This document shows positions 10,218-11,869 of a stretch of DNA of 55,074 nucleotides, piece by piece. Both the position numbers and the translations under genes were made by a program. Positions within the stretch are counted from its first letter, which is position 1; every line of letters begins with the position of its first letter. The notes beneath the pieces were generated by a model. That model saw only the letters and a list, made by a program, of their open reading frames with translations. It had not been told where the DNA came from and ran no database searches. Where the stretch lies: IMG/VR virus record IMGVR_UViG_2880361019_000008; one strand, 5' to 3'. The DNA comes from a virus (Duplodnaviria > Heunggongvirae > Uroviricota > Caudoviricetes).

Positions 10218-10802
10218 ATGACCACTTTTACAAAAGAGCAGTTAATCAGTCATGTTAGTGAAAATGTAAAGGCGATGAAATTTGCAGTAAAACAGACAGC
10301 ATTCAAAAATTCTCTCGAGGCAATTGAGTTGGATTTAGCACTGGCCCTTGTTGCTCAGGCTTCGCTGGAAGCAGAGCCCGTGCTTTATATGAATCGATTT
10401 ACTGGAAAGACATTCTCACTGGAAGAGCAACCCGGTGCTGATAAGGAACCGGAAATATACGTGCCGCTATATGCTGCCCCGCCAGACAGCGCCGCCATGC
10501 TTCAGGCTGGAAACTTTCGGGAAAAGAAGGGTTCGTCAACCAATAATTTTCGGGAAATCTCGGAAACGTCAACCAACTATCCGGTAACTCTGGATGGTTG
10601 GATAAGCTGTAGTGAGCGAATGCCGGATGACGGTCAGCACGTAATTATTTTATGTGATGGCGCATTCGTTCTTTATGCGCAATATCGAGACGGTGAGTTT
10701 TTTGATGTAGTCCGTGATGGTGATGAATTTTTCGAAACACAGAGCCGCAATGTAACCGACTGGATGCCGCTACCAGAACCGCCGCAGGAGGTGCGCCAAT
10801 GA
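10218..10802 (+). CDS. Hypothetical phage protein with C-terminal DUF551-like region
   Basis: ATG 10218 preceded by AAGGAG; C-terminal ...DGWISCSERMPDDGQHVIILCDG...VTDWMPLPEPP. Confidence 0.5.
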   Translation: MTTFTKEQLISHVSENVKAMKFAVKQTAFKNSLEAIELDLALALVAQASLEAEPVLYMNRFTGKTFSLEEQPGADKEPEIYVPLYAAPPDSAAMLQAGNFREKKGSSTNNFREISETSTNYPVTLDGWISCSERMPDDGQHVIILCDGAFVLYAQYRDGEFFDVVRDGDEFFETQSRNVTDWMPLPEPPQEVRQ

Positions 10803-10917
10803 TCTGGCCTGAAGCCTTTGCAATTACAGGCGTTGCTATAGCTATTGATTTTTTAGTATATGTTATTTGTCGGTGGGGGTAAAAACGTTCGCCGGGATTC
10901 ACACCAAAGGAGGGAAT

Positions 10918-11022
10918 ATGTCGGATGATATTTCACTGGCAATGGAAGGTGCGCTGGCTGTTATTGCTGTTGTGGGCGTTTACTGCCTGGTTGTGTTTTT
11001 GATGGATCGACTAGGGAACTGA
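10918..11022 (+). CDS. Candidate 34-aa single-pass membrane peptide
   Basis: ATG preceded by strong SD AAGGAGGG; MSDDISLAMEGALAVIAVVGVYCLVVFLMDRLGN; no homologue recognised. Confidence 0.3.
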   Translation: MSDDISLAMEGALAVIAVVGVYCLVVFLMDRLGN

Positions 11023-11210
11023 ATTCATTACGATATGGGAATTCCCATATCGGGTAAAAACGGTTTGCGGTAAAGCGAGAGTTAAGTAGAATTGCTGCGG
11101 GTGCTTGAGGCTGTCTGCCTCGGGCATGACACCGTAAGGCAGACAGAGAAAAGCCCCAGTTAACATTACGCGTCCTGCAAGACGCCTAACATTAATCTGA
11201 GGCCAATTTC

Positions 11211-11423
11211 ATGCTAGACACATGTAGGTTAGCCTCTTACGCGCCGAAAGGCAAGGAGAAGCAGGCTATGAAGCAGCAAAAGGCGATGTTAATCGCCCTG
11301 ATCGTCATCTGTATTACCGTCATAGTGACGGCACTGGTAACGAGGAAAGACCTCTGCGAGGTACGAATCCGAACCGGCCAGACGGAGGTCGTTGTCTTCA
11401 CAGCTTACGAACCTGAGGAGTAA
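11211..11423 (+). CDS. mok: Mok-like overlapping reading frame (in-frame N-terminal extension of hok)
   Basis: 70-aa ORF sharing frame and stop with the hok-like gene, as in chromosomal mok/hok loci. Confidence 0.45.
   Translation: MLDTCRLASYAPKGKEKQAMKQQKAMLIALIVICITVIVTALVTRKDLCEVRIRTGQTEVVVFTAYEPEE
11268..11423 (+). CDS. hok: Hok/Gef-family type I toxin
   Basis: 51-aa MKQQKAMLIALIVICITVIVTALVTRKDLCEVRIRTGQTEVVVFTAYEPEE resembles Hok; SD AGGAG 9 nt upstream. Confidence 0.8.
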   Translation: MKQQKAMLIALIVICITVIVTALVTRKDLCEVRIRTGQTEVVVFTAYEPEE

Positions 11424-11509
11424 GAGACCCGGCGAGGGAGAAATCCCTCGCCACCTCTGATGAATCAGGCATCCTCAACGCACCCGCACTTAACCCGCTT
11501 CGGCGGGTT

Positions 11510-11869
11510 TTGTTTTTTCCTGGCATTCTGGTTTACAATTCGCACGCCAGCCTGAACAACTGGCACCTGCTGCGCCAGCAGAGACAACCGATGGCGCACG
11601 ATACCAAATTATACAATTCTGATGATTCTGCCGTCTTTGCCAGCAGGCGCGGACGGTGTTTTCACGCATTCAAATCTGACTGGTACCAGCATCCCCCATG
11701 CACTGAAGAACAGGCCGAATGGCTCATTCAGTGTTACCGCAGGCGCGGATGCGAGGTTAAAAAAGCCCTTAGCCTCGACTACCGTCACTGGATAATCTCC
11801 GTCAGGCTCCCTTACTCCGAACGGCCACCGCGTCCGTCCCGCACATTCCAGCAACGGATCTGGAGGTAA
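11510..11869 (+). CDS. Hypothetical protein (possible shorter start at 11591)
   Basis: ORF between hok and the ydfU-like genes; no recognised motif. Confidence 0.3.
   Translation: MFFPGILVYNSHASLNNWHLLRQQRQPMAHDTKLYNSDDSAVFASRRGRCFHAFKSDWYQHPPCTEEQAEWLIQCYRRRGCEVKKALSLDYRHWIISVRLPYSERPPRPSRTFQQRIWR

Follow-up and report, generated by a model that had tools for sequence, protein, structure and literature searches.

Two very short open reading frames (ORFs), ORF1 and ORF2, were analyzed in a stretch of viral DNA of 55,074 nucleotides (nt; IMG/VR record IMGVR_UViG_2880361019_000008), and the whole stretch is hereafter called the window. Both ORFs are very likely genuine protein-coding genes, and their products are tiny single-helix inner-membrane peptides of temperate phages of Escherichia coli and Shigella. 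ORF2 is already annotated and has been reported as translated; ORF1 represents an effectively undescribed family. The two frames and their Shine–Dalgarno (SD) sequences are as follows (allele A is the window type of ORF2).

10786..10793, + strand: SD-like sequence of ORF1, AGGAGGTG, located within the upstream gene; its GGAGG core ends 7 nt 5' of the ATG
10799..10882, + strand: ORF1, 27 amino acids (aa), peptide MIWPEAFAITGVAIAIDFLVYVICRWG; ATG at 10799, TAA stop at 10880–10882
10907..10914, + strand: SD of ORF2, AAGGAGGG, 3 nt 5' of the ATG; conserved in all allele-A loci
10918..11022, + strand: ORF2, 34 aa, peptide MSDDISLAMEGALAVIAVVGVYCLVVFLMDRLGN; ATG at 10918, TGA stop at 11020–11022; allele A

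The coordinates and sequences of both frames agree with a preliminary description made from the nucleotide sequence alone, as do the overlap of ORF1 with the preceding gene and the near-perfect SD of ORF2. The ORF1 start codon is shared, within an ATGA tetranucleotide (10799–10802), with the TGA stop of an upstream gene encoding a DUF551 domain, and the last codons of that gene (QEVRQ) encode the ORF1 SD. Each ORF is no longer than 50 codons and has an SD at a functional distance from its start codon. The RNA around the ORF2 SD is not unusually structured (z = −1.15).

The preliminary description had also predicted one transmembrane (TM) helix in each peptide, and hydropathy analysis bears this out for both, with Kyte–Doolittle windows of 2.1–2.95 over 17–19 residues. 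ORF1 is strongly hydrophobic (best window mean 2.3), the best window mean of ORF2 is 2.95, and modeling of ORF2 using AlphaFold2 led to a single helix spanning residues 2–33 with a predicted local distance difference test (pLDDT) score of 91. In the ORF1 peptide, tryptophan is placed close to each membrane interface, small residues (G11, A13, A15 and A17) line one face, and an arginine lies near the C-terminus. Codon 17 of the window allele of ORF1 (10847–10849) puts an Asp halfway along the predicted TM helix, at a position occupied by Ala or Thr in close relatives; the Asp17 allele is present in 18 of 55 allele-A loci.

The ORF1 family and its upstream genes

Members of the ORF1 family share the motif M-x-W-P-E/D-A-F...[YF]..[CF]-R-W-G over 27 codons. 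A degenerate codon pattern based on it was searched for in IMG/VR and in a 596-Gb (gigabase) genome collection of 185,579 species representatives. Since the pattern has about 21 fixed bases, fewer than 0.02 chance matches were estimated in the genome collection. At least 120 IMG/VR contigs contained the pattern, and the matches listed comprised 33 different peptides and 54 different DNA sequences; together with the window and other collected loci, this gave 126 pattern matches. Among the species representatives, the exact pattern occurred only in E. coli and Shigella flexneri. A tblastn search of the ORF1 peptide against GenBank phages revealed 92 records, 90 of which cover at least 80% of the peptide with an identity of 55–63%. 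Unannotated 27-codon homologues that start on the stop codon of the upstream gene are present in the phages BP-4795, Stx2a_WGPS2, Av-05 and vB_EcoS-666R9. The homologue is located in the exo-xis region in BP-4795 and in Stx1 (Shiga toxin 1) phages, while in the window this module follows the replication genes. Av-05 is a lytic phage of Vequintavirinae.

The genome of the phage 933W (AF125520.1, complement 58826..58909; positions 1933–2016 in the extracted locus L002) also contains an unannotated 27-codon ORF1 homologue, MTWPEAFANVGTVMAVVLVVYSICRWR. This copy overlaps the L0139 stop codon through ATGA and abuts the hokW promoter directly, with no ORF2 between them.

The position of ORF1 relative to the preceding gene is retained although the gene itself is not. 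In 124 of the 126 pattern matches, the ORF1 start and the stop codon of the preceding gene overlap (ATGA in 102, TGATG or TAATG in 22), and an SD core lies 5–12 nt 5' of the ATG in 37 of 38 distinct upstream contexts. No fewer than three unrelated families are represented among the genes located 5' of ORF1 (PHROGs 60/660/924, 1621 and 34708), and these genes have at least five unrelated C-termini, namely ...HWMPLPEPPQEV(N/R/K)Q of the DUF551 type, ...KLPDKAMDYLKRNGLISVEDVLR, ...ENDLKNIEQEVNR, ...RDCVIAGIGVEVK and ...AMLKKKGMNQ. Downstream, the similarity between the homologues stops at the ORF1 termination codon, after which the sequences are unrelated. In one IMG/VR contig (L056, ORF1 at 7429–7512 on the minus strand), the preceding gene ends in ...MQRVLAFYRGGGGYPREVK, which resembles the C-terminus of the DUF977 protein of the window; the DUF551 gene is apparently absent from this contig, yet the stop/start overlap with ORF1 is retained.

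The pattern of substitutions is that of a coding sequence. The conserved residues are W3, P4, E/D5, A6, F7, G11, Y/F21, C/F24, R25, W26 and G27, and positions 13, 15 and 17 hold small residues. In codons 8–24, which are free of the search pattern, 23 synonymous and 28 non-synonymous changes were found at an expected synonymous fraction of 0.28 (p = 0.007), and the remaining sense frames looked neutral. The ratio of non-synonymous to synonymous polymorphism (pN/pS) over the TM core was 0.47 in frame versus 0.64 and 2.35 out of frame.

ORF1 is not called by RefSeq and appears in GenBank sporadically, mostly with a wrongly extended start. The database entries come only from Escherichia, and the usual mis-start lies 18 codons upstream, inside the DUF551 gene. 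The designation of both frames as unannotated in the preliminary description therefore holds for ORF1, which is absent from RefSeq, but not for ORF2 (PGAP hypothetical protein WP_001278450.1; ECs_5710 in prophage Sp6 of the RefSeq genome of strain Sakai).

As an ATG overlapping the upstream stop codon is combined with an SD in the last upstream codons, coupling by termination and reinitiation with the Ea22/EaA-type gene is the most likely mode of ORF1 translation. ORF1 would then be the last cistron of an early-gene module, and such coupling implies that its peptide would appear with every translation of the early operon, i.e., early after infection or induction. The peptide most likely resides in the inner membrane with its C-terminus inside, where it may pack against another membrane helix. 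Another arrangement, in which ORF1 serves as a TM anchor added to the DUF551 protein by −1 frameshifting, was rejected: no slippery heptamer is present at CGC-CAA-TGA, and such a fusion is also ruled out by the unrelated upstream genes and the conserved ATG and SD. A gene antisense to ORF1 was rejected as well, since its start would fall in non-homologous flanks, although the frame is often open.

ORF2, its alleles and the hok/sok cassette

ORF2 corresponds to XECs145, a novel translated gene reported by Hücker et al. 2017 (PMC5597208) in a ribosome profiling (RIBOseq) study of E. coli O157:H7 Sakai. In lysogeny broth (LB), XECs145 had an RNA value of 79.1 reads per kilobase per million mapped reads (RPKM), a ribosome RPKM of 346.1, a ribosome coverage value (RCV) of 4.35 and a coverage of 0.99; the corresponding values in brain heart infusion (BHI) were 121.3, 150.1, 1.14 and 0.84, and translation was nearly absent in cold and osmotic stress (PMC5597208). 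The product was classed there as real and as an inner-membrane protein with one TM helix (PredictProtein, supplement S8). The published XECs145 has a length of 162 bp and begins at a far-upstream ATA because the rule of the study took the farthest possible start codon (PMC5597208). The 34-aa (105-bp) form is favored by the strength of the SD, by the RefSeq annotation and by a natural variant in which GTG replaces the ATG start. Because the cultures were uninduced, these data indicate expression of ORF2 in the lysogen.

A degenerate ORF2 pattern was found in at least 120 IMG/VR loci, and the 122 pattern matches comprised 35 distinct DNA sequences among the matches listed. Three alleles were distinguished. 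Allele B, MLVLKCALAIAAVMAIYCLAVVLMDRLSD, encodes 29 aa, starts with GTG after AGGAGG and is about 50% identical to allele A; it is annotated as exactly that 29-aa protein on hundreds of contigs. Allele C, MLAALKGFVAILAVVAIYCLVVVLMDRLSD, has the same layout, alleles B and C being 29–30 aa long. Despite an identity of about 50%, all three alleles retain the SD, the start codon (ATG or GTG), the open frame and the motif YCL..V.LM(D/E)(R/H)L. In the pattern-free codons of allele B, 13 synonymous and 8 non-synonymous changes were found at an expected synonymous fraction of 0.27 (p = 0.0008), and in those of allele A there were 5 and 4, respectively (p = 0.06). The five codons 5' of the allele B GTG look neutral, with 3 synonymous and 8 non-synonymous changes. 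Frame 0 of the plus strand is the only one free of stop codons in all sequences, the other frames on both strands being interrupted in most or all of them. A profile search of 1.84 billion representative proteins returned only 26 clusters, all of the ORF2 family.

According to the preliminary description, the proposal would fail if the frames were not conserved in homologous prophages and gave no translation signal. Conservation was found for both ORFs, through the variety of ORF1 sequences listed above and the three ORF2 alleles, with a synonymous excess only in the proposed frame, and a translation signal is available for ORF2 from the published RIBOseq data. The suggestion that both are small membrane proteins of a type that annotation tends to overlook stands as regards their conservation and hydrophobicity; it needs correction for ORF2, which had already been annotated and reported as translated.

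A gene antisense to ORF2 was considered and rejected, as every minus-strand frame contains stop codons in allele A. In the phage HannyBb (locus L226, 2408–2697), two hypothetical genes are annotated opposite allele B and the hok promoter, and the 29-aa plus-strand ORF is left unannotated. These calls are probably erroneous, the antisense ORF not being conserved between alleles.

The following features surround the two ORFs.

10158 or 10218..10802, + strand: upstream gene, a mosaic Ea22/EaA-like gene with a C-terminal DUF551 domain; PGAP start at 10218
10877..10887 and 11052..11062, + strand: left and right exact copies of an 11-nt direct repeat, GGGTAAAAACG, bounding a 175-nt segment
11031..11052, no strand assigned: perfect 22-bp palindrome CGATATGGGAA/TTCCCATATCG, CGATATGGGAATTCCCATATCG, with an EcoRI site inside, between the ORF2 stop and the hok promoter
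11064..11092, + strand: putative hok promoter recognized from its sequence (TTTGCG, 17-nt spacer, TAGAAT), 41 nt past the ORF2 stop
11099..11423, + strand: hok/sok type I toxin–antitoxin locus; leader with Sok target 11099–11273, mok 11211..11423, hok 11268..11423

The window is a lambdoid prophage with 99.7% identity to many E. coli O157:H7 chromosomes around ORF1 and ORF2. The genes on the plus strand are arranged in the order of replication-type genes, DUF1627, DUF977, the DUF551-domain gene, ORF1, ORF2, hok/sok, a small hypothetical gene, DUF968, rusA and Q. Prophage Sp6 of Sakai is identical to the window over ORF1 and ORF2 and 99% identical from about position 10486 onward. The upstream gene is annotated in RefSeq and matches Pfam DUF551 (E = 1e-20) and PHROGs 60, 924 and 660. 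Three variants of Ea22 (V1–V3) have been described, DUF551 being the C-terminal domain of V2, and the family is early-expressed and pro-lysogenic (PMC10834534).

ORF1 is located exactly 35 nt 5' of ORF2 in all 55 allele-A loci. However, most allele-B loci contain no ORF1 within 600 nt and most ORF1 loci contain no ORF2, and the two ORFs are therefore separate modules. As judged from the loci compared, ORF1 accompanies the 3' ends of early genes of the Ea22/EaA type, and ORF2 moves with the hok/sok cassette. A hok mRNA 5' end, GGTGCTTGAGGC, follows the ORF2 stop in 108 of the 122 ORF2 matches listed (about 89%), at a distance of 43 nt for alleles B and C or 75–77 nt for allele A. Comparison of A-type and B-type loci showed that the hok/sok DNA is 86–100% identical and the ORF2 DNA 60–68% identical, while the upstream DNA is unrelated. 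The reverse association fails, since ORF2 is present in only 4 of 78 sequenced phages with this hok locus. The Rfam family RF01794 (hok/sok leader) matches positions 11099–11273 with 117.5 bits, which places both ORF1 and ORF2 upstream of the hok transcript. A homologous hok promoter (TTGGCG-17-TAGAAT) was picked up by a scan in another locus (L134).

Relative to the ORF1–hokW junction of 933W, the window contains 175 extra nt, which correspond to ORF2 and the palindrome. The exact direct repeat at the borders of this segment suggests an insertion or a microhomology-mediated recombination event; the chance of an 11-mer repeat within 330 nt is about 0.01 by our own estimate. ORF2 forms the left edge of a mobile ORF2–hok/sok cassette and has a strong SD of its own. 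The published RIBOseq data show its transcription and translation in uninduced O157:H7 Sakai lysogens, and such expression would make it a moron-like gene of the lysogen. The ORF2 peptide is predicted to insert in the inner membrane, where it probably acts through helix–helix contact with another membrane protein.

The palindrome is confined to allele-A loci, some of which have an imperfect version. Its RNA forms a 9-bp hairpin (−18.4 kcal/mol, z = −3.95) that is stable but has no U-tract, and a role as a terminator was therefore rejected; the palindrome may instead serve as an operator, as a site of RNA processing or as a stabilizing hairpin. In three loci (L016, L020 and L036), the 147-nt spacer between ORF1 and allele B contains a minus-strand terminator-like hairpin (CCCCGCA...TGCGGGG followed by CGTTTTTT), which hints at a leftward transcript that may end there.

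Two observations concern the hok locus itself. The hok gene of the window (11268–11423) is named hokD by PGAP, but it has a complete mok frame and a full-length hok/sok leader match, unlike the K-12 hokD (relF) located behind relBE. In addition, a sub-threshold Rfam match to isrK, an Hfq-binding small RNA of the Salmonella Gifsy-1 prophage, was found at 11432–11513 (27.7 bits, gathering score 50, E = 0.001); this region overlaps the 3' end and terminator of the hok transcript just 5' of DUF968-rusA-Q.

Weighing of the explanations

Several points weigh against the conclusion that both ORFs are genuine genes. The Sakai RIBOseq study excluded ORFs shorter than 30 aa, which places ORF1 outside its reach (PMC5597208), and the ribosome footprints on the last 22 nt of ORF1 are due solely to the overlong XECs145 call. 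In 3 of the 55 allele-A loci, ORF1 is interrupted by a nonsense codon, and in 11 it is replaced by a 25-aa variant (MSRPDAFAGV...) without Trp3, so the constraint on ORF1 is moderate. Since the fixed 27-codon pattern forces the terminal motifs and the length, equal length of the ORF1 matches is not independent evidence; the 25-aa variant emerged only outside the pattern. The antisense frame whose third codon positions match those of ORF1 is also open in 52 of 55 ORF1 sequences. For ORF2, the RIBOseq reads may derive from more than one of several identical prophage copies, and a consensus scan of the window and of one allele-B locus found no plus-strand promoter for it. Finally, profile, structure and literature searches found no studied homologue of either ORF. 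Neither peptide gave a significant match in Pfam-A, PHROGs v4, NCBIfam 20 or PADLOC 2.0 (the best E-values of 0.01–0.2 were to unrelated hydrophobic segments), and a PDB search gave no match. Homologues were not found in the K-12 prophages Rac, Qin and CPS-53 or in lambda, and for both peptides they were confined to phages of Escherichia and Shigella. A full-text literature search for both peptide strings and the accession numbers returned nothing, and the RIBOseq supplements for strain EDL933 contain neither peptide.

Three other explanations were weighed, and each is considered unlikely. The ORFs might be translated or translatable but give functionless peptides, as proto-genes or as passengers in frequently exchanged phage modules. 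The narrow spread of both families (E. coli and Shigella among the species representatives for ORF1, 26 protein clusters for ORF2), the nonsense alleles of ORF1, the rarity of ORF2 at phage hok loci and the lack of fit to any known family or phenotype agree with this explanation. It is nevertheless improbable, as the synonymous excess is specific to the proposed frames, the SD and start are kept across the divergent ORF2 alleles, ATG-to-GTG changes included, and ORF1 persists downstream of unrelated genes as well as in a lytic phage. It is less probable still that conservation acts at the DNA or RNA level. In that case, ORF2 would serve the hok promoter as an upstream element or belong to a longer hok transcript, and ORF1 would be an RNA element or the junction of a recombination module. 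Only 10 nt separate the ORF2 stop of alleles B and C from the hok −35 element, and the 3' codons overlap the UP element position; moreover, ORF1 is found exactly at mosaic junctions and the 11-nt repeat flanks the ORF2 segment. However, a 33-nt insert separates ORF2 from the promoter in allele A, yet LMDRLGN is kept there via synonymous changes; ORF2 is located upstream of the hok transcript start (Rfam match from 11099); and the variation shows codon periodicity, accompanied by ribosome footprints at an RCV of 4.35. The Rfam scan found no family over 10799–11022, and the fold at the 5' end of ORF2 is not unusual.

The proximity of ORF2 to a genuine type I system raises another explanation, namely that ORF2, a hydrophobic helix of 29–34 aa, belongs to the type I toxins, such as TisB, ZorO or ShoB, and is controlled by an undiscovered antisense RNA, so that two type I systems would be adjacent. 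A weak minus-strand promoter-like match (10942–10915) overlaps the ORF2 start, and the three allele-B loci described above have a minus-strand terminator-like hairpin just 5' of ORF2. These features are not conserved between alleles, and promoter-like matches are about as frequent as in shuffled sequence (3 found versus 1.9 expected). ORF2 does resemble Hok/Gef, TisB, ZorO, ShoB and Ldr in being a short hydrophobic helix, and it adjoins hok/sok. Unlike these toxins, it lacks a mok-like leader ORF and a conserved antisense RNA, its ribosome-binding site (RBS) is not sequestered, leaving the SD exposed, and neither Rfam nor PADLOC gave a match. Neither ORF matched HOK_GEF (PF01848) in Pfam at E ≤ 1, whereas the neighboring hok is a true family member. 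Efficient translation in healthy, normally growing lysogens (RCV 4.35) would also be unexpected of a potent toxin, and we regard this explanation as very improbable.

The conclusion that ORF1 and ORF2 encode genuine membrane peptides can be taken further by assuming that they are working parts of their modules. ORF1 would then be an obligate coupled membrane partner of Ea22/EaA-type proteins, and ORF2 a third, protein component of hok/sok that, for example, tunes or counteracts Hok. This extension is rather doubtful.

Relation to known systems and significance

Single-TM inner-membrane proteins of at most 50 aa are a known class in E. coli, identified using comparative genomics and RBS models (Hemm et al. 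2008, as cited in PMC5597208), and ribosome profiling has also been used in small-protein discovery (Weaver et al. 2019, bioRxiv 10.1101/511675). ORF1 and ORF2 resemble this class in size, in the single hydrophobic helix, in the SD and start, in conservation in close relatives and in being missed by gene callers, and ORF2 also in its discovery by RIBOseq. Unlike the members of this class, they are phage-borne and show no sequence kinship to the named proteins. XECs145, ECs_5710 and WP_001278450.1 are ORF2 itself, but Hücker et al. 2017 (PMC5597208) described neither its link to hok nor its other alleles.

Translationally coupled overlapping cistrons with ATGA or TGATG junctions occur in phage operons, and ORF1 is similar to them in its stop/start overlap and in the SD inside the upstream gene, which also distinguishes it, together with its variable upstream partners, from stand-alone small-protein genes of E. 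coli. Unlike typical coupled cistrons, this tiny cistron is joined to several upstream genes that are not homologous to one another, and it behaves as an appendage that can be transferred between 3' ends. Its partners are Ea22/EaA-type mosaics, including DUF551 (V2), of the kind found among the exo-xis genes of lambda and Stx phages. The exo-xis literature (PMC10834534) makes no mention of ORF1, and lambda lacks a homologue.

Thus, with ORF1, the phages of E. coli and Shigella and the Stx phages, including the reference Stx2 phage 933W, gain a conserved family of micro-proteins that is hardly ever annotated. A simple profile could allow annotation pipelines to recover ORF1, and the XECs145 start should be corrected to the 34-aa form. 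ORF1 is located at the 3' end of genes that were deleted or over-expressed in studies of lysogeny control (ea22, exo-xis), and the constructs used may therefore have removed or uncoupled it unknowingly. Since the upstream Ea22 family is early-expressed and pro-lysogenic (PMC10834534), ORF1 is of some practical relevance there. If it is a true partner of Ea22/EaA proteins, published phenotypes of ea22, exo-xis or DUF551 genes in Stx phages could be partly due to ORF1 or confounded by it. ORF2, which is expressed in uninduced O157:H7 lysogens and tightly linked to a toxin–antitoxin locus, is a cheap candidate for a prophage membrane modulator.

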